The position numbers and the translations under genes were made by a program. From assembly GCA_963755915.1 (NCBI GenBank), contig CAVWLP010000002.1:1600001-1664000 (forward strand): a DNA stretch of 64,000 nt, in the 5' to 3' direction. Each line of letters starts with the position of its first letter. The first letter of the stretch is position 1. Source of the stretch: an uncultured Phycisphaerales bacterium (GTDB lineage: Bacteria; Planctomycetota; Phycisphaerae; Tepidisphaerales; Tepidisphaeraceae). The notes under the pieces were generated by a model. That model was given only the letters and a program-made list of their open reading frames with translations, made no database searches and was not told the origin of the DNA. Below, piece after piece: positions 8,118-64,000 of the stretch.

Positions 8118-10525
8118 ATGTCAGTTATCGCGGGTCTGCTGTTAGCCCTGGCAGCTCTTGGATTGCCCGTGGCTCGGGCCGCCGAGCCCTCCTGGCCAGC
8201 GGACCGCAAGTACCGGATTTTCGTACGCGTAGATCCAATCGATATGGGAAATCACCCGCGGGAGGCCATGGTTGCCTCTATTCATGTCGATTTCAGCAAA
8301 TACCTCTCCGGCAAGTGCGATCTATCCAGTCTCCTGATTCAGCAGTATGACCCCGACACCGGTCAAATCATCGATACGCACGACAATGCCCTCGCGACTG
8401 TTCCCGGTGAACTTCCCCTTCGCTTTTATGACGATCAGGTTCCCTGGATGTACCCCGATTACCAGGGATATTCTGATCCCAAGACCGGTATGGCACTGCC
8501 GATCCGCATCATTCCCGGCGGTGGCCGATTCTTTAACACAATCGGCGACGGGCGCACCGGAAAAATCGCCTGGGCTCACATACAGACCGGAAACAACCCG
8601 AGCTACTACGAAATATCATTCAGCGAGCTTCCGCCTGGCGCCGGCGATCGCCCGCCACCGGCCGGAATGCTCGGCGATGGTGTAAATCGCTGCCTTCCCA
8701 TGGGCGGTGACACCTCCGTTCCCGTCATCCACGCCCGCGTTGCCGTGGGCGATCTCAGCGGAACCGGAATGTTCGACATGGTCGTCGGCAACGGTACCGG
8801 CACGCTTCTCTGGTACCAGAACCATGGAACCCCAGGACATCCGGTTTTTGACACGGCACGCCTGCTTTGCACCGAAGACGGTACGCCGATCGATGTCGGC
8901 TGGAGTTCGGCGCCCGATCTTGTCGACTGGTACCATCATGGCCTGCTCGACCTCATCGTTGGGGCCGAAAAAGAATCGGTGATCCTTTTTAAGAATGTCG
9001 GGGATAAACATCATCCGGTGTTCCGGTTGATCGGACCGCTGCAGGCCGACGGCAAGCCGCTTCGCGTGCCTCACAATTATTGTGACACGGATCCACAGAA
9101 CAAAATTTATCCGGTCGACTACGAGCCCGTGCCCCAGGCCGTTGACTGGACCGGCAACGGCAAACTCGATCTTCTGGTCGGCGGCTATATCACCGGCAGA
9201 GTCTTCTATTACGAGAACACAGCCGATTCACCGGATGATCCTCCGAAGCTGTCCTATCGCGGCCCCCTCCAGGCAGATGGCAAAGACGTCGATGTAACCT
9301 GGTGCCGCCCCCTGCGCCGCCGATTTCCGTCACTGCGGAAAGCTCGATCTCATCAGCGGCGCAATGCAGGTCACGGCCGGCGGCGCGGACTGGGCCGATC
9401 CAGCCAGGGCCATGTGGTACTACGAAAACGTCGGCACCCGCCAGAACCCCGTGCTGCACCACGTTCCTTTCCCCTCCTCCGGGCAATTTCCCTTTGGAGC
9501 TTTGGCTACCCCGCGCGGTCGACATCACCGGCAATGGCATGCTCGACCTGGTTACCAGCGTCGATCAGGAAATTTACCTTATTCGCAATATCGGCACACC
9601 AACCAATCCCTTATTCGATGCCAGCTCCAAGCCGATCAAGATGCCCTGGGGTGCAGCAAACCTGATGTTCGACCCCCAGTTCATCGATTTCAGGCACAGC
9701 GGATGGCCCGATATCTTCTACAGGGATGAAATACAGCTCAACAGCCAGCGCGGCACTCCGGGTTTCTTTGATCAGATCGTCCCGCTGCCTGGTGCCGAGT
9801 CAATTCACCATCCCGCGCCTCGCGGCGATCCATGGGACACGCGCGTATTGGCTGACGTCGACGGCGACGGCAAGCCCGACATCCTCGTCACCGACAACGA
9901 CGGGTGCATTTGGTTTCACAAGAACATCGGAACCGCCGATCAACCCCGATTCGATTCCGAAGGCGTGCGATTGAAGCTCACCGACGGCAACTTCGTACAG
10001 GTCGGCATTCCAGCCAAAGGCGCCGCTGCATTCGATGTGCTGCAAGGCGCGCGCCCCTGGGCGGCAGTGATCGACATGAACCACACCGGCTTCGGCGATC
10101 TGGCAATTTCCGACGAGTATGGGCAAGTTCATTTGTTCCTTCACGATCCCAGTGACAAACCCGGCGAAACCCCGAGATTTCTACCCGGAATCGCCCTCCC
10201 CAGCATGGAGCCGGTTCGTTTGGTCGTGCGAAAAATCGATTGGAATCACGACGGCTGGGACGACCTGATCTTCGCCTACGCCGACGATCACTATTACATT
10301 CTCTTGAACGAGCCCGGCCCCAATGGCACGCGCCAATTTTCTGCCCCGCAGAAAATAGACGTCCCCGGCTGCTATGGCGATCCATTCATTTCCGTCGTCG
10401 ATTGGAACCGTGACGGTGACGCCGATCTGATGATAAACCAATACGGCTACATACGTTTCGTCGAACAATCGTTTATCCAGCACGGTTACATCAACGGGGA
10501 GCCGCTGACCGCAGAATCCCGTTAA
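8118..10525 (+). CDS. Secreted FG-GAP/VCBS-repeat beta-propeller protein, split by two frameshifts (~9305, ~9515)
   Basis: Repeats GDLSGTGMFDMVVG, VDWTGNGKLDLLVG, ADVDGDGKPDILV, DWNRDGDADL with YENxGT linkers across ORFs 8022-9665, 9364-9729, 9302-10525; signal peptide. Confidence 0.8.
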
Positions 10526-10631
10526 CGCGTCGCGCGGCGCAAGATGTTTTCATCGTCCCGGCAGGTCGTTCCAGCCAAACGCCGGCGCTGCGATATACTG
10601 ATCGCCAGCGCTTTCGACTTTCTCGAACCAC

Positions 10632-12214
10632 ATGCACTTTGCGCATCCCATCTTTCTACCACTCGCCAGCCTGGCATACGGCAACTCGTTGGGAAGGCTC
10701 GACTACGCCGTGCTGCTGGCCTACCTGGCCGCGAGCATTTTCGTCGCTACGTACGCCTCACGTGGCAAAAAAAAATCGTTTGACGACTACTGTGTTGCCG
10801 ACCGCGCAATTCCCTGGTGGGCCGCATGCGTCTCCATCGTAGCAACCGATCTGAGCGGAGTGAGCTACATTGGGGTGCCCGCCTGGATTTACCAGCACGA
10901 TCTGAAATACAACTTCGGCACCATTCTGATGCCGCTGGTCATGCTCGCGGTGGTGCTGATTTTCGTGCCGGTTCTCTGCCGCCTGGGGGTTTACACCATT
11001 TACCAATACCTCGAGCAGCGCTTCCACAGTGCGCTCGAACAGTGACAGCCTGCCTGTTTCTCATGAAGGGGCTCATCCACCTCGGCGGCGCGATCTATAC
11101 CCCGTCGCTTGCCCTCACCGCCGCCACAGGCATTCCCCTGTGGACCTGCATCCTCATCATCGGTCTCTCCACAACACTCTACACGATGAAAGGCGGCATG
11201 CGCGCCGTCATCTGGACCGACCTCACCCAATTCATCGTCCTCGTCGGTGGGCTGGTCCTGATGATCTGCGTCGCCATGGCCGGCCTCGGCTGGGACTGGG
11301 CCGGAATGTGGCACACCGCCTCCCAGCTCCGCGCCCCCGCCACCGGAACGCCCTACACAACTCTGCTTGACTGGCATCTGAGTTTGAAGACCGAGGCCAC
11401 CGTCTGGTCGCTCCTCGCCTTCTATTTCGTTTTCAATCTCGGAACCTATGGCACCGACCAAATCGCCGTTCAGCGCTACTTCACAGTCAAAAATTTCCGC
11501 GAGATTTTCAAATCGGTTATCGGATCGGGATTCGTCAACGTCGCCGCCGTTGCCATGATGGCCGGCCTTGGCTTGGTCCTGGTCGTTTACTATCACGCAC
11601 ATCCAAGTCTCGCCGGCACATTGACGCGAGCCGACGACGTTCTGCCCCATTTTGTGATGAACGTACTCCCCCCCGGCGCCCGCGGCATCATTTTCGCCGC
11701 GATTTTCGCGGCCACCATGTCGTGCGTCAGCGCCGGGCTCAACTCCTTTTCCACCGTCGGCGCCGTGGACCTCTACCGCGAACTCGTCAAGCCCGACGCC
11801 ACCGACAACCACTACCTTTTCGTCGCCAAGGTCCTGACCGCCGTGAGCGGAATCATCACCACGTGCCTCGGCTTGCTAGTGAGTTTATCCCACACCACGA
11901 TTTTACAGACGATCAATTCGCTTCTTTCGATTTTCATCGGCCCGATTACCGCGATGTTCTTCCTCGGCGTTCTGACGCGCCGGGCAAATATCGTGGGATT
12001 AATGATTGGTGTCGTCGCCGGACTGCTTTGTGGAGGACTGCTCCAGTGGACATCGCTCGGCAACGACGTCAATTGGCTATGGCTCGCCCCCTTCGGTTGC
12101 GCGATCACCTTTGTTGTGGGCTATGTCACAAGCCTTCCTTTTGCAGCGAGAATCCCGCCGCGCCAGGATGAACTTCCCAGCTCCGTGGCGATCCGGGCGC
12201 TTTCGGATAACTGA
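10632..12214 (+). CDS. Sodium:solute symporter (SSS), frameshift ~11030
   Basis: SIVATDLSGVSYIGVP, TIYQYLEQRF, GGMRAVIWTD, GTDQIAVQRY, AAIFAATMS.VSAGLNS. Confidence 0.9.
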
Positions 12215-52417: not shown

Positions 52418-54038
52418 ATGCCCAAGGCGGTGAAATTCTTCGGCCTGCTTGGCGGCACCGTTTTGCTGCTGATGATTCTGCGGTGGACGGGCCTTCTGGT
52501 TTTCAATCCGCGCCAAATCTTGAGCATCGGCATTTTTTCAATGTTTATTTTCGGCACGCTGCTCTACGGCGAATTCCGGCTGGCTTTTGCCTTCGGAGGG
52601 ATCGCTCTGCTTATGGCGTGCAGCCTGCTGACGGTCGATCGCTTTACCCAGGCCGCCAGCCTCGATGTGCTGGTATTTCTCATCGGAACATTCCTCGTTA
52701 TCGGCTTTCTCGAGGAAAGCCGATTTTTCGAGCACGTGGTCGGCGCCATCGTCAGCACCGTTGGCCCGCGCCCGCAATTGCTGCTGATCACCATGATGAT
52801 CTTGGCCTCCCTGGCTTCGGCGCTGGTCGGCGAAGTGACGGCCATTCTGTTCATGGCCGGCGCCATGCTGCACCTGACGAATAAATACAAGCTGACGCCC
52901 GCGCCGTTCGTTATCATGCTGGTCTTCGCCTGCAACAACGGGTCGGCGATGAGCTCGGTGGGTAATCCGATCGGTGTGCTGATCGCGTTAAAGACGGGTT
53001 TGAGCTTCACGGATTTCCTGAAAGACGCGGCGCCGATTGCGCTGGTCGTTGACGTGGTGACGTTCGCGATTTGCCGATGGTGGTTCGCAGATGCCTTCGC
53101 CGAATTCGCCGCGGCGGTTCGGAAGGAATTCGCGCTGGCGACGGCGAGCAGAGAACCGGCGATGGCGATCGCGGGGAACGGCGGGGGAGAATTGGCGGAA
53201 TCGGCCGAAGTTGCCGCTGAATCGTCGGCGCTTCCGCGATCCCGATCCCCTCTTTACGCCGGACAATCCCGGCGATCCCGAGGCCAAACGGGCCTTCATT
53301 CTGTCCTGGGCTATTTTGCTTGGGCTGATATTTCTGCTGGTGACGCACCGCCAAAGCGAATCTTTGCTGGGCGAGATTTTCCGCTCGCCGCTTACCGCGC
53401 CGGACGGCTCCATCGTCCGCGGTCCCAATGGCGAGGTTGTTTACGGGCTTCGCGAAGGAACCATGATGGTTGCCGCCGCTTTGATCATGGGCTCCATCGT
53501 GCTGCTTCTGCGGCGGGAAAAAGCGAGGGAAATGGTCGAGCGCAGGGTCGATTGGTGGACGCTGGCTTTTTTCATGATGCTGTTCGCGTCGGTGGGGACG
53601 CTTCAGGACACGGGCGTCACCGAGGTCATCGCGGCGAGACTCAGTGGCGTGCATGGCGGCCACACCGGGGTGATCCAGGTCATCGGGTGGTCAACGGGTT
53701 GGCTGAGCGCTTTTCTCGATAACGTCCTGGCCGTCGCCACGTTCATGCCCGTCGTGCATGACATCCGCATGAAAGCGGGAGTTCCATACTCATCGGCGAT
53801 CTACTGGTTCATGCTCTTCGGCGGGACGTTCATGGGGAACATGACGATCATCGGCTCGACCGCGAACATCGTGGCGTGCGGGCTGCTGGAGCGGCGCGGG
53901 CACGGAACCATCAGGTTCGGTTATTGGATGAAGATCGGATTTATCGTGAGTATCGCGTCGATGATCGTGGCCACGGTATTGCTGCAGATGCAATCCCATT
54001 GGCTCCCCCTCATGGCGCCGCCGCGGGCTGGATCATAA
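52418..54038 (+). CDS. SLC13/ArsB/NhaD-family ion transporter, frameshift ~53240
   Basis: FACNNGS...VGNP, VDW.TL.FF, LSAFLDNV, GGTFMGNMTIIGSTANIV. Confidence 0.85.
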
Positions 54039-54958: not shown

Positions 54959-57314
54959 GTGCAGATGGATGTCAATCCATCGACCGGCATAGACGTCGCG
55001 CGGCTTCCCGACGCGAGCCATCGGCGCAAAGTAAATGTTCTGGTGGTGAGCAGCGTCGCCCTGGCGTTTATGAGCTTCTGGCGCGCCGCGGCGATCGTCT
55101 TGTGCGATCTCGCTAGCACCGCCTACTACATTGGCGGCATCAGCGAGCAGGCCGTCGGAAAGGCGGCGCCGTGGTTTATCCTTGCGGTGATGCTTTTTGT
55201 GTACCCGGTGACGTCCGTGTACATGGAAAGCTGCACGCTTTTCACGCGCGGCGGGGTTTACAAGGTCGTGAAAGGCGCCGTGGGCGGAGGGCTGGCGAAG
55301 CTCTCCGTCAGCGCGCTGATGTTCGATTACATTCTCACCGGGCCGATCAGCTCCGTGGCCGCGGGGCAGTATCTCGTGGGGCTTTTCGGCGACATGCTGA
55401 AGCTGGCGACTTGGCATACGAATCACCCGATTGTTTTTGACGCGACGACTTATCCCGGCTGGATCAACTTCCTCACGATGCTGATCGCGATCGGGATCAC
55501 GTTCTACTTCTGGCGGACCAACATCATCGGAATTCATGAGTCCAGCGAACGGGCGCTGCGGATCATGCAGGTTACGACGATCATGGGCCTGGTGATTGTC
55601 GCCTGGAGCGCGATGACGATCTGGGCGATGCCGCACGGCACGATCCATCTTCCCCCATTCCATCCGATCTTCACGCAAACGAGCCTCGACCCGGCCAAGC
55701 AGGCATCGTCCGGCTGGCTGGAGCATTTTCCGAGGCTTCTCGGGGCGATCGGGGTATTGATCGCCTTCGGGCATTCGCTGCTGGCGATGAGCGGCGAAGA
55801 ATCGCTCGCGCAGGTGAATCGCGAGATCGAAGCGCCGAAGCTCAAGAACCTGCTTCGGGCTGGAAGAGTGATCGCGCTTTACGCGATTTGCCTGACGGGG
55901 ACCATCAGCTTCCTGGCGGTGCTGATCATTCCCGATGGGAAACGGGTTATCACCCAGATCGTAAACAACGGCACTGCTCACGACTCCGCAGGCACTGGGG
56001 AAATCCTGGTGGGAGGTGGATTATCTGCGCCCCGCGGATCAGCAGCACGCGGCCGACTGGGGATACCTCATGCTGCGAACCGAAGACGCGCACGGGCATG
56101 AAATGCTGGCCCGGACCAACCACCCAATTGTGATCGATCCGCGATGGCAGCACGTCGAACGCGACAACGGCGGATATCGCGACAACCTGATCAACGGGCT
56201 CGTTCACTACCTCGTGGGACCGGCGTGGATCAAGATCGTCATGGAATGCTTCGTGGTGATCGTTGGGTTCCTCATCCTTGCCGGGGCTGTGAACACCAGC
56301 CTGGTGGGGTCCAATGGCGTCCTGAATCGCCTCGCGGAGGATGGCGTCCTCACGCCCTGGTTTCAGCGGCCGCATAAACGATACGGCACGACGAATCGAA
56401 TCATCAACCTTATTGGCGTTGCACAAATTGTCGTCATCATCGCCAGCCTTGGCGATGTCAACACGCTTGGCGAAGCGTATGCGTTTGGAGTCGTCTGGTC
56501 GTTTGTGTTCATGTCGCTGGCGATGGCGGTGCTTCGGTTCCGAATTCGCTCGCCGCGGCAATACAATGTTCCGCTGAACATCAACAAACAAACGCAGCAT
56601 GGGATCGTGCGATTTCCGGTCGGAATTGTCGCGGTTTTCCTGGTGCTTTTCACCACGGCCTGCGTCAATCTGGTCACGAAGAAGACGGCGACGATCTGGG
56701 GGATCAGTTTTACCGCGTTCTTTCTGCTGGCGTTTGTGATTGTGGAGCGGATCACGCATCGCCGGCATGGCGGCAACCATGAACACCTGGAACAATTCAA
56801 CGAAAAGAGCAGCGACGCGGTTTCGGTGGAGGCGCTGGGTCTGACGCACGAGGAGCCGATTCTGGTCGCGGCCCGCGGGCCGCGGAGTCTTCCGATGCTG
56901 GACAAGATTCTTCATGAGGCCGATACCAGCGAGCGCGACGTGGTGGTCGTGACCTGCAAGGTGCTTCCCCCGCGGACGCTTGGGGTCACGGAAAAAGAGA
57001 CGGCCATCGACGATACCGATCGGGAGCTTTTGACGAAGGTCGTGTCGGTGGCGGAGCATGTGGGGAAGCAAGTTTATCCCGTGGTTTTGCCGACCAATAA
57101 TCCGCTGTTTGCGATTGCGACGACGGCGCGGGACCTTGGGGCGACGGAGGTGGTGCTGGGCGTCAGCGAGCAGATGCATGCGGAGATGCAGTTGGAACAA
57201 TTCGCGATTGCCTGGGGAAGCGCGACGGCGGAGCAGCGGTATTCGGAGATTGCCTCGCGGCTTGTAGTGCGGATCATCGGGCCGCAGATGGAGATGAAAT
57301 ATCAGATGGAATGA
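54959..57314 (+). CDS. APC-family permease with C-terminal USP-like domain, frameshift ~56000
   Basis: SFWRAAAIVLCDLASTAYY, GGVY.VV, DYILTG.IS, SGEES, AVNTS, YAFGVVWSF; USP-like ILVAAR...EVVLG. Confidence 0.8.
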
Positions 57315-58068
57315 GGCTTGATGCAGGGTTTGGGGGGTGGGTGTTTCCGCGATCGCGACCACATATTGAGCGGGGTGGATTTCAAAGAAAGTTAGTGGCG
57401 GCAAACGCGTTGATTCCGCTGCGGGGCGGGGGGTTTCGTTACCGTTGACACTTTCGATATTTTTAAAATCGGGGGCGGAGGGTGTACGTGTTTTTTCGCG
57501 GAATGCGACAGGGGGGATTTTTCGGGTTGGTCGGGTTGTGAGATACATGTGCTCCGAAAATAAGGGTCAAATTGCCGGTTCGAGGCCACCCGGCAAACGG
57601 GTTTTCATCCGCTTGGGGTGTCTCAAAAATCATGCTCGTCTATATATAGGTCCAAAGGGTGTACGTTTTGGACCTATTTTGGAGCGGGGTGGGAAGATTT
57701 GTTTGGGGGTGAACAGAAATTCGAAACTCGAAAATCGAATGTTATAATGAGAAGAGTTCGCGGAGGCGTGGAGAATTTTGTTGAGGTTGGGGGGAAGAGA
57801 GGTATAAGGGAGGGGCGGGCCGGAATGTGGAAATCTCGGCGGTGAGATTGGGAATGTGAGATCAAATTTGGGGTGGGTTGAGATTGTTTTGGGGGCGTAA
57901 GATTTTTTAGCGGCGGATGTGGGCGGAATCAGGGGATTCAAAAGAAATTAGATGAGATTGAGGCCGTGTTCAAAGCGCACGGTGATCGCGCGTTAGTAAT
58001 ACGCTTCGCGTCTTTTCGGGAGCTTGTGCTTTTTGCGGGTTTTCGATGGGGCGTTTTTAGAGGCGTTT

Positions 58069-58544
58069 ATGGCTGTTTTGTGGAAAAAACTTCGGCCGGG
58101 GGAGTGGGGGGGCGAGTGGGAGGCGGAGGAGCTGAATGGGGCGGCCGCGGAGGTGGGGGATGGGGTGGTAATTACGAAGGCGGGGGGGGAGAGGGTTTTG
58201 ATCGCGGCGGTGGGGGCGGAGGTTTGGGTGAATGGGGAGCGGGTGGGGCTGGGAATTCGGGTTCTGCGGGATCGGGATGCGATTGGCGTGGGGCCGGGGG
58301 GAATTTTTTCTATTCGAGCGAGAGCCTGGCGCGGGTGGAGCGTTTTTCGGAGGCGCGGGGGGTGGTCTGCGCGGTGTAAGGGTGAGATTTGCGGAGGGGA
58401 TGTGGTGCGGTGCCCGAAGTGCGGGGCGATTCATCATCAGACGGGGGAGTTTTCTTGCTGGACGTATGCGGAGAAGTGCGCCTGTGCGACCAGGGGACGG
58501 GGCTGGATGGGGTTTATCAGTGGATCCCGGAGGGGTTGGAATGA
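58069..58544 (+). CDS. FHA-like + prokaryotic RING-finger protein (candidate E3), reconstructed across ~3 indels
   Basis: VWVNGERV.LGIRVLRDRDAI.VG (FHA-like); CARC...VRCPKCGAIHHQ....CW.....C..C; its stop overlaps the E1 start (ATGA). Confidence 0.65.
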
Positions 58545-59614
58545 GCGGGCAAAATTCCAAATTGAAGGGTGTGGGCGTGATCGGGAACGGGAATGTTGGA
58601 TCGCAGCTGGCGGTGCAAATTGCGCGGAGGGATGACGTTGGGGAGATCGTGCTGTGCGACGATCAGGTTTATACGAACGAGAATGTGCGTTGCCAGGAGA
58701 TTGATCGGGAGGATGTGGGGTTGGCGAAGGCGGAGGCATTGGCGCGGCGGCTGAGGAAGATTCGGGAGAACCTGAAAGTTACGGCGATTGTGGATCGGGT
58801 GGAGAATGTGCCGGCGGGGAGGTTCAAAGAGCATTTGATTGTCGGATGCGTGGACATGAAGCTTTCGAGGGCGGAAATCAATCGGATCAGGTGCCGGCTT
58901 GGATTGGCCTGCCTGGATGTGGCGATTCGGGCGGATGGGTTGCTGGCGCGGGTGGATGTGTATGGAGCGGGGGCTGGGGATGCGTGCATCGAGTGCGCGT
59001 TTACGGAGCGGGATTATCAGCAGATTTCGCGGAGTTATGCGTGCGATGGGGGAGTGAAAGACGCGCCGGCGACGGGGGCGAGCGCGGCGCTGGGGGGACT
59101 GGCGGCGTCGCTGGCGGTGCTGGAGTGCGGGAAAATTCTGGAGCGGGGGATGAGCAGCGATCTGGTGGGGAAGCAGATCGTGATCGAGGCGGAGAGACAT
59201 CACGTTTATGTGAATTCGCTGCGGAGGAATCCTGGGTGCCGGTTTGACCATCGGGTTTGGGAGATTGGGCGGAAGCGGGTGGGAACGCTGGGGGAGATTG
59301 TGGTGGGCGGGCCAAAGAAGGGGATTGCGGTGGAGGGGAAATCGTGGATTACGCGGGTGGTTTGCCGGGGGTGTGGGGATCAGCGGAGGGTGGTGATGTT
59401 GCAGGGGAGGGAGAAGGGAATGGGGAAGTGTGAGAAGTGCGGCGGGGATGTGCAGCCGCTGGGGTTTGGCATGGTGCCGCGGCTGGAAATCTGTGGGGAA
59501 CTGGCGGAGAGGGGGATTGGGGATGTGGGGCTGTTGAGCGGAGATGTTGTGAGCGTGGGGGATGGGGAGGGCGAGGAATTCATCGAACTGGTGGGGGCGG
59601 GGGTGGAAGGGTGA
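58541..59614 (+). CDS. E1-like ThiF enzyme with C-terminal Zn-ribbon/UFD-like extension
   Basis: IGNGNVG, CDDQVYTNENV..Q, G.AKAE, GCVD...R, CIEC, YAC (catalytic Cys candidate), NPGC, CRGC...CEKC. Confidence 0.9.
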   Translation: MSGQNSKLKGVGVIGNGNVGSQLAVQIARRDDVGEIVLCDDQVYTNENVRCQEIDREDVGLAKAEALARRLRKIRENLKVTAIVDRVENVPAGRFKEHLIVGCVDMKLSRAEINRIRCRLGLACLDVAIRADGLLARVDVYGAGAGDACIECAFTERDYQQISRSYACDGGVKDAPATGASAALGGLAASLAVLECGKILERGMSSDLVGKQIVIEAERHHVYVNSLRRNPGCRFDHRVWEIGRKRVGTLGEIVVGGPKKGIAVEGKSWITRVVCRGCGDQRRVVMLQGREKGMGKCEKCGGDVQPLGFGMVPRLEICGELAERGIGDVGLLSGDVVSVGDGEGEEFIELVGAGVEG

Positions 59615-59621
59615 GGATGCA

Positions 59622-60167
59622 ATGGATCGGATCTTTGCGAAATTTCTGGAGAAGCAGTGGGCAGCGGGAATGGAGCTGGCGGCGAGCAGCGATCTGCTGC
59701 GGCTCAAGGCGCTGCGGACTACGGATGGGCCGGCGCAGCATTTCATTGCGCGGTTTTATTGCAAGGGGTTGGTGAAGAATGCGAACGGGGAGGTGGCGAC
59801 GCGGGAGCGCTGGGATATCGGGATTTTTTTCCCAGACGATTATCTCAGGCGAGCGAATACTTTTGAGATTTTATCGTGGCTGTATCCGCGGAATGTTTTC
59901 CATCCAAATATTCTGGTGCCGGCGATCTGTTTGGGGGAGAAGTTTTTCCGGCCGGGGTTGCCGCTGGTGGAGATTTTGTTCCAGGTGCATGGGTTGATCA
60001 CGTATCGGAGGTGGGCGTCTCAGGTGAGTTTGAACGCGGAAGCCGGGCTCTGGGCGGTGAATAACCAAAATCGGTTTCCGGTGGACGATCGGCCACTGAA
60101 GAGGCGGAAGGTGGAGATTCAGGTGGAGGCTTCGGAGCCGAAAGGGGGAAGCCGTGAGATTGTGTGA
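59622..60167 (+). CDS. E2 ubiquitin-conjugating-like enzyme
   Basis: IFFPDDY, VFHPNILVPAICLG, LVEILFQV..LIT, SLNAEA..W. Confidence 0.85.
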   Translation: MDRIFAKFLEKQWAAGMELAASSDLLRLKALRTTDGPAQHFIARFYCKGLVKNANGEVATRERWDIGIFFPDDYLRRANTFEILSWLYPRNVFHPNILVPAICLGEKFFRPGLPLVEILFQVHGLITYRRWASQVSLNAEAGLWAVNNQNRFPVDDRPLKRRKVEIQVEASEPKGGSREIV

Positions 60168-61134
60168 GCAGAGTGAGATTCGGGCGCGGGTGAACAAGGT
60201 TCTCGAAGAGTGGGTTGGGCGCGGGCGTGAAGCTGCCGACGGCCCCCTCCCCTGCCCTCCCCCGGGATACCGGGGGCGGGGGAAAGAGAGGGGTGTGACG
60301 GCAGTGGTGGGAGAGAAGTGGGTGGAGCTGTGCGCGCAGGTTGCGCGGGGGCGGATTCATGGGCTGGCGATCTCGCGGTGTGCGTGGGAACTAGCGCGGG
60401 TGAATGGGGCGCTGAACGGCGCGGCGAAGATCGGGGTGAGGGGAGGGGATGGGTGTGCGGAGATTTTTCGGGAGATTTGGATTGATTCGGAGGAGGGGCT
60501 GGGGCAACGGGTGCGCGAGGGGATGGGGGATATCGAGGAGGTTCAGGGGCGATTGCGGGGGGGTGGGGAGAATGGTTTGTCCGCGCAGGAAGGCGCGAGC
60601 GAGGGGGAAGATTTGGGTGAGATCATTCGGATGGCGGGTTGGAGGTGTAACCTGAGGAGCGAGGGTCGTGTGGCGGTGGAACTGGAGGTGCCGGGGATTT
60701 TTGTGCAGGCGATGGTGCGGGGGGGCAAAAGGATTTACGCGGCGGTGGAGGTGGGGCGGGGGGATTCCGCCGGTGGGGAGACGGCTCGACTGGGCTCGCC
60801 GAAGTCCGGCGGCACTGTTCTTTTGTCGGGGGCGTCGCGAGAGGCGATTGGGGTGGTGCTGCTGCAGGTGTCGGGGAGGGTGCGGTGGGTGCGCGGGGGA
60901 GTTCGGGAGGGGAAGGTCGTGCTGGAAGGGAGTGCCGGGTCGGCAGAGGCGGGGCATCTGTTGTCGGCGCTTTCGGTGGCGGCGGGGATGTCGGTGCGGG
61001 AAGTGGGGGCGCTGGGGGATGAGGAGACGGCAAAACGATTTCTTGCGATGCGAGGATGGTCTTCGCAATCGGCAGAAAGTGTTTCAAGACCAGAGGAGTA
61101 TGCAGATGAGTCAAGTGCAAACGATTTCGTTTGA
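60154..61134 (+). CDS. Hypothetical protein in Ubl operon
   Basis: 326-aa ORF overlapping both neighbours. Confidence 0.6.
   Translation: MRLCEQSEIRARVNKVLEEWVGRGREAADGPLPCPPPGYRGRGKERGVTAVVGEKWVELCAQVARGRIHGLAISRCAWELARVNGALNGAAKIGVRGGDGCAEIFREIWIDSEEGLGQRVREGMGDIEEVQGRLRGGGENGLSAQEGASEGEDLGEIIRMAGWRCNLRSEGRVAVELEVPGIFVQAMVRGGKRIYAAVEVGRGDSAGGETARLGSPKSGGTVLLSGASREAIGVVLLQVSGRVRWVRGGVREGKVVLEGSAGSAEAGHLLSALSVAAGMSVREVGALGDEETAKRFLAMRGWSSQSAESVSRPEEYADESSANDFV
60243..60293. repeat. REP-like palindrome inside CDS
   Basis: CCCTCCCCCGG-GATA-CCGGGGGCGGG; a C-rich patch in strongly G-rich DNA. Confidence 0.55.
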
Positions 61135-61384
61135 GGTGCGCGATGTGAGCGGGCAGAAGTCGGCTCGGGTGAAGGCGTGTCCGGTGGATGCATCGGTGGG
61201 GGAGGTGGTGCCTTCGCTGCTGGAGATGATGCAGCTTCCGCCGAACGATCCGGAAGGGAATCCGGTGAGTCATACGCTGCGGCGGAACCGGGATGGGCAG
61301 GTGCTGCTGGAGTCGGATGTGGTGGGGAGGGTGATCGAGCAGGGGGAGGAGTGTGTGTTGCAGCCCTCGATTGATGCGGGGTGA
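61106..61384 (+). CDS. Ubiquitin-like protein with free C-terminal Gly
   Basis: 92 aa; beta-grasp pattern (FEVRDVSG...PVDASVGEVV..L...MQLP...L.R.RDG.VL...V...I.QGEECVL), ends QPSIDAG; RBS GAGGAG. Confidence 0.8.
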   Translation: MSQVQTISFEVRDVSGQKSARVKACPVDASVGEVVPSLLEMMQLPPNDPEGNPVSHTLRRNRDGQVLLESDVVGRVIEQGEECVLQPSIDAG

Positions 61385-61498
61385 AAATCCGGGGGAACCC
61401 ACGGCGGCGCCGTGGGCGTTCCGGGAAGGGGTGTCTGGCGGGCGTGGGTGATCGCGCCCGGCAGGCACTTTTCAGAGGTTTTTGCGCGAGTGATTGGT

Positions 61499-62570
61499 AT
61501 GCAGGATGAGCGACTTGAATTTGGGCTGGAGCTTTCGCGTCGGGCGACGGGGGAACTTGTCGGGCGTGCGGCGGTGAAGGTGGATTGGGCGCCGGTGGAA
61601 GAGCATTTGATACTCAAGCTGGTGCGCGGGGGGAGCTGGAGGATTTTGATGCGGCGGTGGGGGTGACGCTGGAGCCGGTGTGGTCGAAGGAATTGCCGGT
61701 GGTGCGGGGGGTGAAGGCTACGGCAATGGCGCAAGGTGCGGGGTCGGCGTCGATGTTGGTGACGCTGGATTACTTTCGGCCGCTAGCGCAGCGGGCGGCG
61801 AATCGGCTGGTGGAGGTGGGGAAATTGCGGTCGGGGGAATTGTTTGAGTATCGCGTGGTGGCGAAGGAATTTTCGGCGAAAGGGAATGGGAAGCAGGGGC
61901 GGATTGTAATGGAGGCGGGGGCGAAGCCGGTGAATATTCTGCCGGGGCGGATGGATGAAATGATGGGGCGGGCGATTGGGTTTGGGGCGGGGGAGGAGCG
62001 GGATGTGCCGGTGTTTGTGGACTGGGGGGCGCTGGAGGAGGCTTCGGTTTTGACGCGGCAGGCGGGGGAATTGGAGACGGGGGGGATTCTGGTGGGGCAT
62101 GTGCGGAGGGATGTGGAGACGGGGGAGATTTTTCTGGAGGTGACGGCGCAGGTTGCGGCGCGGGCGAAGTCGCAGCTTACGCGGCTAACGTTCAGTCCGC
62201 AGACTTGGACGGAGCTGGAGGAGGGGGTGAAGGCGCGGGGGAAGAATGAGGTTTGGCTGGGGTGGTGGCATTCGCATAGTTTTTTCAAGAATGCGATTGA
62301 GACCGGGGGCGCGGCAGGGGCGGAAGAAGAATATGAATCGCGCGGGTCGCGGGTGGCGCGGGCGTTTTTGAGTGAAGAGGATGTGTTGTTGCACCGGAGC
62401 GTTTTTCCGCGGGCGTACAGCGTGGCGCTGCTATTGACGGATTCGCCGCGGTGGGGGCTTTCGTGGACACTTTTTGGATGGCGGGGGGATGGTGGCGCAG
62501 CGGGGATTTCATGTGGTGAATGTGCCGATGCCGGAGACATTTTTTTCATTGCGAGGTGGGAGTCATGCGA
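61499..62570 (+). CDS. JAB/MPN+ deubiquitinase-like peptidase with N-terminal extension (frameshifts ~61628, ~62485; end approximate)
   Basis: ETGGILVG, LTFSPQTW, LGWWHSH, LSEED..LH. Confidence 0.85.
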
Positions 62571-64000
62571 AGGTCTGAATCGAATCAAATCATGGAGATT
62601 CTTGGGAAGCTGACGGCGACGGGAGAAGGATCGCTGGCGGCAGGGCAGAAGACGCAGCTTTTGCTGGAGCTGCATGCGCGGTCGCCGGAGGTGGGGGTGA
62701 TGGTGATGGGGGAAGTGTTTGGGCGATTGGAGCGGATGGATGCGGGGTTGAAGGAGGCGCGGGGGGCGGTGCAGGAGATGCGGGGGAAGTTTAACGAGCT
62801 GCTGGAGAAGACTTGGTATGTGGCGACGTTCGTCGAGTTGATTGGGAAGCCGGAGGAGAGGAATGCGCTGGTTTTTCAGGGGAGCAATAGCCGGGTGGTG
62901 GGGGTGTGCGGGGAGGTGAAGGTGGAGGAGCTGAGGAAGGGGTGCGAGGTTTTGCTGAACAAGGAGATGACGGCGATCGTGAAGTGCAGCCCGCGGAGGC
63001 GGAGTACCGGGGAGATCGCGACGGTGGTGGAGAAGACTTCGCGGGGGACGGTGATTTTGAAGAGCCGTGAGGAGGATGTGGAGGCGGAGCTTTCGGAGGA
63101 GCTGCGGGAAGTGGAATTGAAGGCGGGGGAGCGGGTGAGGTGGGAGCCGGCGGCGCGGATTGCGCTGGATCGCGTGGAGGAATCGGAGGCGGGGAGATTC
63201 TTGATGGGGGAGGTTCCCAAAACTTCGCTGGCGGCGGTCGGGGGGCAGGATGAGAACGTGATGAAGCTGATGGGGATTCTGACGGCGATGCTGGTGGATG
63301 CGAAGAGAGCGAAGGAGTATGGGTTGAATGGGAGAGCGAGCATTTTGTTGGTGGGGCCGCCGGGGTGCGGGAAGACGCTGATGGTGCGGGCGGCCGCGGG
63401 GGAGATATCGCGGATGACGGGGAAGGCGGTGCGGTTTTTCATCGTGAAGCCGAGCGAGTGGGAGAGCTGCCTGGTGGGGAATACGGAGAAGAATATCCGG
63501 ACGCTGTTCGCGAATTTGCGGGAGGCGACGAAGGATGGGTCGCAGGCGGTTTTGTTTCTGGATGAGGTGGACAGCATCGGGCGGGTTCGGGGGCATACGC
63601 AGGGGTATTACTCGGACAAGGCGCTGAACGCGCTGCTGACGGAGCTGGATGGGTTTGCGGAGAGGGATGGGGTTGCGGTGGTGGCGACGACGAATCGGAA
63701 GGATTTGATCGACAGCGCAGCTGCAGCAGAGGTTGTCGGATCATGAGATTCATGTGGGGCCGCCGGACATGAAGGGGGCGAAGGAGATTTTCGGGATTCA
63801 TCTGCGGGCGACGCTGCCGTTTGACCCCAATGGGCAGATGGCGGAGGCGACGCGGCGGGAGATGATCGAGACGGCGGTATCGCGGATTTATCACCCCAAT
63901 TCGCCGGTTGCGCAGATTTGCCGGTTGAAGTTCAATGACGGGAAGACGCGGATGGTGATGGCGAAAGACCTGGCGTGCGGGAGGTTGATTCAGCAGATCT
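62565..64000 (+). CDS. ARC/Mpa-like proteasome AAA+ ATPase (frameshift ~63718; truncated by window end)
   Basis: Coiled coil, tandem OB-like segments, EVP....VGG, GPPGCGKTL, VGNTEKNIR.LF, LFLDEVDS, LLTELDG, TTNRKDLID; C-terminal MIETAVSRIY...LKFNDGKTRMVMAKDL.CG.LIQQI. Confidence 0.8.

Follow-up and report, generated by a model that had tools for sequence, protein, structure and literature searches.

Several described systems resemble parts of the locus studied here. Prokaryotic RING-type ubiquitin-like protein (Ubl) operons, reportedly described by Burroughs, Iyer and Aravind in 2011, are said to combine E1, E2, a small RING protein, a Ubl and a JAB peptidase in one operon, and a ubiquitin operon has reportedly been described in Caldiarchaeum subterraneum. 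The present locus shares this set, but its RING protein includes an FHA-fold domain, its E2 and Ubl genes are separated by a chaperone-like gene, and a Pup-like module follows. The BilABCD, Bub and CBASS Cap2/Cap3 systems, as their biology is generally understood, share the E1, E2, Ubl and JAB enzymology; to our knowledge, they contain no RING protein, Pup-like tag or Mpa-type ATPase. In the eukaryotic 19S regulatory particle, Rpn11 sits on the Rpt ring, so that a JAMM peptidase, a proteasomal-type AAA+ ATPase and a ubiquitin-like tag come together. Equivalents of all three are encoded side by side here, although no 20S core was found and it is gene adjacency that associates JAB with the ATPase. 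The actinobacterial Pup system has the same ATPase architecture and the same order of ATPase, Dop-like enzyme, small GGQ/GGE tag and second Pup_ligase paralogue. In contrast to that system, the locus lacks prcAB and is joined to an E1/E2/RING/JAB set, and its proteins score below the equivalog cut-offs (ATPase 308 versus 505, Dop 254 versus 492, PafA 220 versus 551).

The coupling of a Ubl system to a Pup system has been noted in one sentence of Kaur et al. 2020 (eLife), with JAB, E1, a prokaryotic RING E3, Ubl and E2 accompanied by Pup-system genes, all of which are shared here. That sentence gives no gene order, tag sequence, distribution or absence of the 20S proteasome. The E2 and Ubl are separate genes in the present locus, whereas related FtsH-ternary systems have a Ubl-E2 fusion. 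The operon is real and interesting but not new in kind, the combination having been predicted before and never studied at the bench.

The window, a 64,000-nucleotide stretch of DNA from a soil bacterium (genome G000), holds genes for an FHA-RING protein, E1, E2, an unknown protein, a Ubl, JAB and an Mpa/ARC-type ATPase, arranged head to tail on the + strand at 58069-64000. All seven elements named in an earlier note on this DNA were found in place and tightly packed, but the operon continues past 64000, where the window ends inside it. The region probably makes up the first two thirds of an operon that is conserved, has ten core genes and moves horizontally. The genes downstream of the ATPase encode, in order, a Dop-like enzyme, a Pup-like tag of 64 residues with a GGE end, a second Pup-ligase-family enzyme, a Clp-type AAA+ protein and a TPR protein. 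Adjacent genes overlap or are separated by a few bases, except for a 115-base gap 5' of JAB; the E1 start overlaps the RING stop, and the JAB end and ATPase start overlap by 14 bases in G000. Upstream of the operon, 750 bases without genes contain a lone sigma-70-like promoter match, TCGAAA-16-TATAAT with TG (57721..57748, + strand). Since shuffled sequences gave a mean of 2.6 such matches, it counts as no more than a match to the consensus. A sigma-54-like site was not found upstream of the operon.

The open reading frames of the earlier note could all be identified, but RING, JAB and ATPase are frame-broken in G000. Counting the Clp-type gene, the operon contains at least six frame breaks, as might be expected of a decaying pseudogene cluster, a reading that we consider highly improbable given that the essential rpoB and rpoC genes are also split, into six pieces each, in the same assembly. 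Moreover, at four break sites (L003 1481, 5480, 6719 and 11561) contigs assembled from the short reads of four soil runs, all from one study, have indels that restore the frame; the other sites have little or no short-read cover. In the window, short-read contigs show one extra G behind 58481 in RING (one contig), GC inserted behind 62480 in JAB (two runs) and one base missing at 63719 in the ATPase gene (two runs). The RING and JAB frames are intact in the sister genome L106. Because rpoB and rpoC are broken in the same manner and the short-read indels fall on four shift sites, the frameshifts in RING, JAB and ATPase are assembly errors, and the operon genes are intact in the population.

The first gene (58069..58544, + strand; broken by a mid-gene shift pair and a further shift near 58481) encodes a candidate E3 with an FHA fold and a C4HC3 prokaryotic RING. 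Its match to Pfam Prok-RING_1 (E 3.3e-5, 24.2 bits) is below the 29.1 cut-off; the C4-H-C3 ligand set is invariant or nearly so among 41 homologues, with C97, C100, C115, C127 and C137 invariant and C112, H120 and C134 nearly invariant. The RING also fits the prokaryotic-RING description in PMC11354881. An AlphaFold2 model of the ~90%-identical L106 protein (pLDDT 94.1) shows an FHA fold in the N-terminal half, and the Foldseek matches listed are FHA domains or FHA-containing complexes (probability 0.99-1.00). The canonical FHA phosphothreonine site comprises an Arg and a Ser/His pair, and these residues are absent from the conserved columns of the domain in the 41 homologues. The proposed selection of phosphoproteins through FHA is therefore not borne out: the fold is present, but the Pfam search of the protein returned no FHA match and the conserved columns lack the canonical-site residues.

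The E1-like adenylating enzyme (58541..59614, + strand) has a ThiF fold (E 7.5e-16) and ends in a zinc ribbon, CxxC...CxxC, that is conserved in the alignment, and a short C-terminal domain. The E2-like protein (59622..60167, + strand) matched neither Pfam nor NCBIfam. Its HPN motif and catalytic-type Cys are conserved across 46 sequences, P95 and C103 being invariant and H94 and N96 nearly so; profile comparison gave weak matches to solved E2s (E 0.036-0.06), and feature matches in the ESM Atlas pointed to UQ_con clusters (score 0.96).

The unknown gene that follows (60154..61134, + strand) has 47 aligned homologues and is a real gene, with a REP-like palindromic insert at 60243-60285. Its product is modelled as two tandem alpha/beta domains (pLDDT 80.9), closest to type III secretion chaperones and YbjN (Z 5.3-7.3), and Pfam CesT matches the homologue L043 (E 9.3e-5). 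The Ubl (61100..61384, + strand) ends in ...SIDAG. In 48 sequences A93 is invariant and G94 nearly invariant, while similarity to known families is weak (YukD, E 0.0014; MoaD/SAMP1, E 0.06-0.24). The Ala-Gly pair is the C-terminus in 28 of 63 genes, and the remaining 35 have a tail of 1-30 residues. The JAB/JAMM metallopeptidase (61499..62578, + strand; frame-broken near 61636 and 62480) has an N-terminal extension of ~180 residues and the E...HxH...S...D motif, including WWHSH, with E206, H272, H274, S299 and D302 invariant in the alignment. All parts of the claimed cascade, RING E3, E1, E2, Ubl and JAB, are thus present.

The Mpa/ARC-type AAA+ ATPase (62565..64000 in the window, + strand, and onward to G000:C2:1664239; frame-broken at 63719) consists of a helical N-terminus, two OB domains (Prot_ATP_ID_OB_N and Prot_ATP_ID_OB_C) and an AAA module. 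The two genes of the Pup_ligase family directly behind it (E 4.5e-92 and 2.4e-83) enclose the Pup-like ORF, whose last residue is Q in 41 of 50 such ORFs and E in nine. The tag has no Pfam Pup match and scores 16.5 bits against TIGR03687 (cut-off 41.45). Neither the Ubl (48 sequences) nor the Pup-like tag has an invariant Lys in its alignment, and a fixed tag-on-tag linkage is therefore not indicated. NCBIfam slightly prefers Dop for the first Pup-ligase paralogue and PafA for the second, and both match solved Dop more strongly than solved PafA; from sequence, either paralogue may be the ligating or the deamidating one.

The earlier note had proposed that the ATPase receives its substrates from an E1-E2-E3 cascade in place of Pup and delivers Ubl-tagged proteins to a 20S proteasome. 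The first premise is not supported, as a Pup-like tag and two Pup_ligase-family genes adjoin the ATPase. Delivery to a 20S particle would suit the Mpa/ARC/PAN architecture, and the neighbouring JAB gene brings to mind Rpn11, which sits on the Rpt ring. Reading beyond 64000 yielded the two Pup_ligase-family genes but no 20S, and profile searches of G000 and four other carriers detected no 20S proteasome genes. The bacterial alpha model matched in none of these five genomes, and matches to the beta model were weak (21-28 bits) and confined to three (G000 is 81% complete, completeness is not reported for the other four, and one of the five is labelled a whole chromosome). PF00227 found HslV and one remote proteasome-beta-like ORF, 3.3 Mb away, in G000; in the control genome of Corynebacterium glutamicum, which has a proteasome-free Pup system, Pup and Pup_ligase matched and PF00227 did not. 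No alpha or beta gene occurs among the recurrent neighbour families flanking 69 related loci. The docking motif of Mpa is GQYL, but the Tyr-Leu pair of the present ATPase is not C-terminal, extra residues following it in contrast to actinobacterial Mpa/ARC; exactly three residues lie beyond the aromatic-hydrophobic pair in 39 of 64 sequences. Taken with the Pup-like tag encoded beside the ATPase, these findings make delivery to a 20S proteasome very unlikely. Of the proposed ubiquitin-to-unfoldase/proteasome pathway, the complete cascade and the ATPase conserved next to the Ubl genes stand, but the ATPase has a Pup-like tag of its own, and the absence of 20S genes from the five carriers leaves the feeding of a proteasome by ubiquitin only partly supported.

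We favour, as the probable reading, an operon encoding two protein-tagging systems and one unfoldase, with unfolding rather than 20S degradation as its output. As judged from the conserved motifs, E1 would adenylate the Ubl, a thioester would hold it on E2 (HPN...Cys), and its placement on targets would be guided by the FHA-fold RING protein. JAB would trim the short tail with which the Ubl of many relatives is made, leaving the Ala-Gly end. A chaperone-like protein is encoded between E2 and Ubl. The second module, mostly outside the window, comprises the hexameric Mpa/ARC-type ATPase, the two Pup-ligase-family enzymes and the 64-residue tag, which in most relatives ends in GGQ and would need deamidation by analogy with Dop. 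Tagged proteins would then undergo ATP-driven unfolding or disassembly, as in proteasome-free pupylation, an output suggested by the lack of an encoded 20S. Most likely, the two tags share their substrates. Marking or regulating these would fall to the folded Ubl, and engaging the ATPase to the disordered Pup-like tag; JAB, whose gene overlaps that of the ATPase, would strip the Ubl at the ATPase, in a manner reminiscent of Rpn11 on the 19S particle.

The two tagging systems may instead be independent, with unrelated substrates, and linked by co-transfer alone, which we regard as rather unlikely. Each half resembles a known self-sufficient system, and of 401 genomes of the phylum, 43 have Pup_ligase homologues, mostly in the absence of this Ubl set. 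In the sister genome L106, RING to JAB remain, but 6.1 kb reaching from the middle of the ATPase gene to the end of the TPR gene is gone, so the Ubl half can persist without the Pup half, at least temporarily, unless the deletion is an assembly artefact. The JAB profile, however, retrieved 69 related loci from at least nine phylum-level groups (all ten genes detected in 37), and in every one of them the ten-gene core keeps its order and strand in spite of repeated transfer. The genes also overlap at the junction of the two halves. The same order was found in six of 16 regions fetched from the phylum. By tblastn the ATPase gene adjoins the Ubl genes in 67 of the 69 loci, and both exceptions end near a contig end.

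The distribution and neighbourhood of the operon also bear on a possible role in conflict, in which infection would lead to the tagging of invader or self proteins and the ATPases and Pup-like tag would serve as effectors, akin to the Bil and CBASS Cap2/Cap3 systems. Its spread is patchy, a close E2 (38-50% identity) being found only in G000 and six others of 401 sampled genomes of the phylum, and it has crossed phyla and been lost in part in L106; the ATPase tree requires 8 changes of the Planctomycetota label, at least five of them forced by starred branches. Kaur et al. 2020 place related Ubl systems among conflict systems. On the other hand, PADLOC matches are at the domain level only (the E1 Rossmann part to E1-E2 models, JAB and AAA), with no match for RING, E2, Ubl, the unknown gene or either Pup-ligase paralogue. 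The G000 flanks, transporter and aldehyde dehydrogenase genes as judged by translations alone, form no defence island. TIR-domain genes lie beside three loci and WD40 genes beside 11, a minority, and in many loci a dedicated sigma-54 activator or regulator-like gene is found instead. We therefore hold an anti-phage function to be a tentative alternative, less probable than the dual-tagging reading. A second AAA+ gene, of the Clp type, which would fit such a function, is present in 18 of the 45 loci with at least 1.5 kb of sequence after the last core gene. The G000 locus shares ~86-90% DNA identity with the locus of a genome labelled Phycisphaerales (Planctomycetota group).

Between 58069 and the window end, seven tightly packed genes were called as ORFs on the plus strand, and together they contain all seven elements that the earlier note had claimed at 58069-64000, as judged by ORFs, Pfam, orthologue alignments and an FHA fold model. 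The first gene, starting at 58069, encodes a RING protein with similarity to Pfam Prok-RING_1. It is followed by an E1 with a ThiF domain (PF00899; 58541-59614), an E2 recognized by its HPN motif and the alignment of its Cys (59622-60167), a 326-residue ORF without a family match in this genome (60154-61134), a 94-residue ubiquitin-like (Ubl) ORF ending in DAG with weak similarity to YukD (61100-61384), a JAB peptidase gene with weak scores against Prok-JAB and JAB, and, overlapping the latter, a gene for an AAA+ ATPase in which Pfam recognizes both proteasomal OB domains. The observation held item by item, because the diagnostic residues align with those of orthologues and an FHA fold is predicted for the first half of the RING protein. 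The window corresponds to G000:C2:1600001-1664000 of the Phycisphaerales genome. The ATPase gene is the last in it and ends at position 7239 of L003, the operon region that runs 12 kb past the window end (L003 coordinates are window coordinates minus 57000). The suggestion to read past 64000 for 20S subunits, PafA and Dop paid off in part: two Pup_ligase-family genes and a tag were found, 20S genes were not. The first ligase-family gene (L003 7296-9005, E 4.5e-92) and the second (L003 about 9215-11026, E 2.4e-83) enclose the Pup-like tag, a 64-codon ORF ending in NRQQGGE (L003 9018-9212). Behind them lie a frameshift-broken P-loop gene, the intact orthologues of which are single Clp/Hsp100-type AAA+ modules, and a TPR gene, the last of the cluster.

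The enzymes of the Ubl cascade were recognizable to different degrees. The adenylation domain of the E1 matched ThiF/MoeB (PF00899) at E 7.5e-16 and 58.4 bits (cut-off 28.1), and its C-terminal CxxC...CxxC ribbon is conserved in the orthologue alignment. The E2 returned no family match in Pfam, NCBIfam or PADLOC searches; P95 and C103 are invariant among 46 sequences, with H94 and N96 kept in at least 90%. A profile of the E2 found E2s among PDB sequences at E 0.036-0.7 with capsid proteins interspersed, and in the ESM Atlas it gave feature matches (score 0.96) to clusters with UQ_con in 31-41% of their members. In the RING domain (Prok-RING_1 E 3.3e-5, 24.2 bits, below the curated Pfam cut-off of 29.1), all eight ligands of a cross-brace are present as a C4-H-C3 set that is invariant or nearly so in 41 sequences, the arrangement given for prokaryotic RINGs in PMC11354881. 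The metal site of the JAB, E...HxH...S...D, is invariant at E206, H272, H274, S299 and D302 in six sequences including that of the Phycisphaerales genome, and the orthologue in locus L039 matched Prok-JAB at E 3e-7, more strongly than the Phycisphaerales copy. The Ubl shows weak similarity to YukD, MoaD and SAMP1 in Pfam and profile searches, and its C-terminal Ala-Gly is conserved whether or not a tail follows, as one does in 35 of 63 genes.

AF2 modelled the RING protein's N-terminal half as an FHA beta-sandwich (pLDDT 94.1) from the copy in the Phycisphaerales sister genome (L106:6571-7038, about 90% identical). The matches listed by Foldseek were FHA domains or FHA-containing complexes at E 1.1e-3 to 2.3e-2, with target TM scores mostly of 0.5-0.68 for single-domain targets; the Pfam FHA model was unmatched even at E up to 0.05-0.1. 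Conserved columns of this half are W5, L18, W38, N51, G52, G58, L62, D66, F78, S79 and E81. The earlier note had proposed that the domain might select phosphoproteins; judged by the conserved columns of the alignment, a conserved Arg or Ser/His ahead of the NG, which would be expected from the canonical phosphothreonine-binding residues of FHA domains, is absent.

The 326-residue protein encoded between E2 and Ubl was predicted by AF2 with 47 homologues (pLDDT 80.9, pTM 0.81) to consist of two similar alpha/beta domains. The fold type compared is alpha-beta3-alpha-beta2-alpha, present in the model as two tandem copies, and type III secretion chaperones and YbjN-family proteins ranked at the top for each domain with both Foldseek and VIA-align. 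The values were middling on the tool's own scale: VIA-align gave Z 5.3-7.3 to SicP, SycN-YscB, Spa15, SchA and others, where Z below 8 may reflect a common arrangement only, and Foldseek matched SigE with probability 0.98 and E 0.05. The orthologue in locus L043 matched Pfam CesT at 23.0 bits (cut-off 22). As a lead only, a pseudo-dimeric chaperone-like protein of the predicted kind would suit the binding of an extended peptide, such as the tail of a tag or a substrate; a complex prediction with E2, Ubl and the Pup-like tag scored 0.12 against a mark of 0.32, which speaks neither for nor against binding.

The ATPase has the N-terminal helix, two OB domains and AAA module of Mpa/ARC, with matches to PF17758, PF16450 and PF00004, and it aligned over its full length with solved Mpa/ARC chains; its TIGR03689 score of 308 bits is below the cut-off of 504.75. 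The docking motif of Mpa, GQYL, sits at the very C-terminus. The conserved C-terminus of the ATPase reads ...RYLxVA, and the aromatic-hydrophobic pair is followed by exactly three residues in 39 of 64 sequences. Both Pup-ligase paralogues matched PF03136 (310 and 281 bits) and remained below the equivalog cut-offs. With the NCBIfam models, and far under those cut-offs, the first paralogue scored higher as Dop (254 against 229 bits for PafA) and the second as PafA (220 against 208 bits for Dop), whereas both scored higher with Dop when compared to solved structures. Since the two rankings disagree and all scores are under cut-off, similarity does not reveal which paralogue is ligase and which deamidase. 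In PMC7947786, planctomycete homologues are placed outside both the Dop and the PafA clade. Within the sample of 401 genomes of the phylum, 43 had Pup_ligase homologues, most of the carriers with a single gene in a frame of about 640-690 codons and without a close copy of the operon's E2. In family f28, each of the 11 genomes in the sample had a Pup_ligase homologue, and 10 of these also had a weak E2-like match on a different contig.

The tag had no PF05639 match and reached 16.5 bits with TIGR03687 (cut-off 41.45), so it could not be assigned to the Pup family by these models. The Pup-like ORF is kept in all five orthologous loci that reach so far, where it ends in GGQ or GGE. Among 50 such tags of 61-96 residues, 40 end in GGQ, eight in GGE and two otherwise, and 41 have Q as the last residue. 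Judged by these motifs, the tag may work in a manner resembling Pup.

The earlier note had envisaged a proteasome as the partner of the ATPase, and the genome searches argue against this. In five carrier genomes (the Phycisphaerales genome and four others, among them one record titled whole chromosome and another with the operon on a 5.35 Mb contig), none matched the bacterial 20S alpha model TIGR03691, and the beta model TIGR03690 gave just 21.6-27.7 bits in three (cut-off 191.9), with models for which the control genomes all stayed below either cut-off and archaeal 20S did match. The PF00227 matches of the Phycisphaerales genome were HslV (262.6 bits, equivalog model) and a remote beta-like stretch 3.3 Mb away. 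The latter is a 305-codon ORF at G000:C2:4949425-4950342 (L005 1471-2388) with 30.5 bits to PF00227 and 23.9 bits to the archaeal beta model (cut-off 224); these models rule it out as HslV or a 20S subunit. No peptidase occurred among the recurrent flanking families of the loci.

Conservation of the operon was surveyed at two scales. A search with the Phycisphaerales E2 across a 401-genome sample of the phylum returned homologues in 45 genomes, six of which were 38-50% identical. Sixteen E2 regions were fetched: in the six close ones the genes follow each other in the same order, beginning with RING and ending with the second paralogue, within the limits of the contigs, and the ten distant ones, most of which have a RING, E1 or JAB match alongside the E2, are other systems. 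A JAB profile search of a species-representative genome collection yielded 69 loci, all from metagenome-assembled genomes. By record label these belong to Acidobacteriota (19), Planctomycetota (17), Gemmatimonadota (9), Verrucomicrobiota (6), Myxococcota/Deltaproteobacteria (6) and Binatia (4), with one locus each from Anaerolineales, Armatimonadetes, Spirochaetales, Burkholderiales and unspecified Proteobacteria and three from unlabelled records. The genes are colinear and lie on one strand in 69 of 69 loci, so the refuting outcome named in the earlier note, an ATPase not conserved next to the Ubl genes, did not occur; by tblastn, the full core set of ten was recovered in 37. The gaps in the other 32 are at contig ends alone in 17 and have another cause in 15, namely the short tag alone undetected (6), the 326-residue gene alone undetected (3), RING and E1 unfound (3), E2 and the 326-residue gene unfound (1), tag and second paralogue unfound (1) and a deletion in L106 (1). 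Where at least 1.5 kb of downstream sequence was available, the Clp-type gene came next in 18 of 45 loci and the TPR gene in two.

From the invariant linkage of the two halves we infer that both tags probably act on the same substrates; physical contact between the halves was not seen in any computation. By analogy with the respective families, E1, E2 and FHA-RING would conjugate the Ubl and the JAB would mature and remove it, one Pup-ligase paralogue would deamidate or remove the Pup-like tag and the other ligate it, and the Mpa-like ring would engage the disordered tag and unfold the protein. A linkage of one tag to the other through a fixed lysine was rejected, as alignments of the Ubl and of the Pup-like tag each contain no invariant Lys. 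On a more elaborate and rather improbable reading, the operon would specify a bacterial equivalent of the 19S regulatory particle that works without a proteasome, where the folded Ubl would be the selective mark placed by E1-E2-RING, the disordered Pup-like tag the threading handle for the Mpa-like ring, and an ATPase-bound JAB would strip the Ubl during translocation like Rpn11, both tags being needed on each substrate. If this were true, tagging of the ubiquitin type would have become tied to a JAMM peptidase and a proteasomal ATPase, or would independently be so, in bacteria that have no 20S core.

The phylogeny of the ATPase (60 sequences) showed phylum labels to be clustered, with 16 changes where shuffled labels needed 38 on average. 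Planctomycetota needs eight changes, at least five of which are forced by well-supported branches, and Verrucomicrobiota, Binatia and Myxococcota are likewise split. Because labels cluster and phyla are yet divided, the tree points to vertical descent in some lineages combined with repeated transfer across phyla. The main rival reading is a role in defence. It would be in keeping with the operon's patchy occurrence, its transfer between phyla, its partial loss from the sister genome, the presence of a second AAA+ gene, and TIR and WD40 neighbours at three and 11 loci, respectively; the TIR association was rejected, being confined to three loci. Many loci carry a dedicated regulator instead. 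PADLOC had no families for RING, E2, the 326-residue gene, Ubl or either Pup-ligase paralogue, gave generic matches only for E1, JAB and AAA, and contained no model of the whole system. Should its function be defence, the operon would represent a new effector logic.

In the sister genome, L106 12120-12265 compares with L003 6626-12771, and 6.1 kb are absent, beginning halfway through the ATPase gene and reaching to where the TPR gene ends. The locus keeps RING through JAB only, its DNA is about 86-90% identical and both flanks are syntenic; either the Pup half has truly been lost or the assembly has collapsed there.

About 16 loci have a sigma-54 activator gene as a neighbour of the operon, usually in the same orientation. 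This enhancer-binding protein is encoded directly before the operon in Gemmatimonadota and after it in Acidobacteriota (L083 4806-6497, L069 18036-19814). A gene of about 225 residues without Pfam match lies directly upstream in 17 loci (e.g. L069 5636-6313), and the tail of its product looks winged-helix. The Phycisphaerales operon has neither of these genes beside it, no match to the promoter TGGCAC-N5-TTGC with up to two mismatches upstream, 12 matches to the sigma-54 consensus across 19 kb against 18 expected, and no Rfam family at gathering score in L003 1-13500. The GC skew over this operon is +0.35 to +0.52 (window 57000-64000 to G000:C2:1670000), G occupies 58-73% of third codon positions, and orthologous operons in other phyla have a skew near 0. 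A skew beyond |0.3| occurs in 456 of 6620 3-kb windows of the genome. The skew was rejected as a mark of foreign DNA, since such islands are common in the genome and the skew is common to the sister genome.

Orthologue-guided tblastn revealed frame changes in the RING, JAB, ATPase and Clp-type genes of the Phycisphaerales genome, an assembly of three contigs with 81% completeness in which rpoB and rpoC (G000:C2:4866817-4874979) are each split into six in-frame pieces. As the assembly is thus full of indel errors, any frameshift in the window needs a check at read level. Contigs from four soil metagenome runs, from one study and at most four samples, were compared with the locus and carried +G at L003 1481 (RING, one run), +GC at L003 5480 (JAB, two runs), -1 at L003 6719 (ATPase, two runs) and +G at L003 11561 (Clp-type gene, one run). 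The place and size of each indel restore the frame, and at these four sites with contig cover the breaks are assembly errors; the mid-RING break and the JAB break near 61636 had little or no contig cover. The source sample of the genome may be among the soil runs, which therefore test base calls and not independent occurrence. Overlapping pairs of long ORFs at 52418-54038 and 54959-57314 resemble further indel cases. A REP-like palindrome some 45 bases long, with a C-rich and a G-rich arm on either side of a GATA-type loop, lies inside the frames of the 326-residue gene (window 60243-60285) and the Clp-type gene (L003 11409-11457), has 61 near matches genome-wide with both strands counted, and shows very high contig depth and many loose ends in the soil runs.

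In the literature searched, the operon is undescribed beyond one sentence in PMC7159879 (Kaur et al. 2020), which notes a Ubl system of this sort coupled to a Pup system, and only an archaeal paper has five of PafA, Dop, Ubl, JAB, RING and Mpa. The locus is an example of a predicted, experimentally unstudied kind. Added to it here are an FHA fold for the E3, a predicted chaperone-like fold for the 326-residue protein, the range of phyla, the regulators, the non-terminal pair in the ATPase tail and the evidence that the frame breaks are errors. At the gene level, the operon is the closest that bacteria come to joining a complete E1/E2/RING/Ubl/JAB cascade to an ATPase of the proteasomal type, compact at ten genes, and spread over at least nine phylum-level groups, to date in uncultured genomes only. 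Reconstitution could reveal how ubiquitin-type and Pup-type tags cooperate, whether a JAMM peptidase acts on a bacterial unfoldase and what role pupylation has where a proteasome is absent, with a bearing on how the ubiquitin-proteasome system originated. Another Ubl system of a different make-up is encoded 140 kb downstream (G000:C2:1800423-1804477; L050 435-4489) and comprises a ThiF E1 (E 2.5e-53), a JAB, a Prok-RING_1 protein and a protein of 359 residues that carries UQ_con in its C-terminal half; it is reminiscent of the systems with a Ubl-E2 fusion in Kaur et al. 2020.
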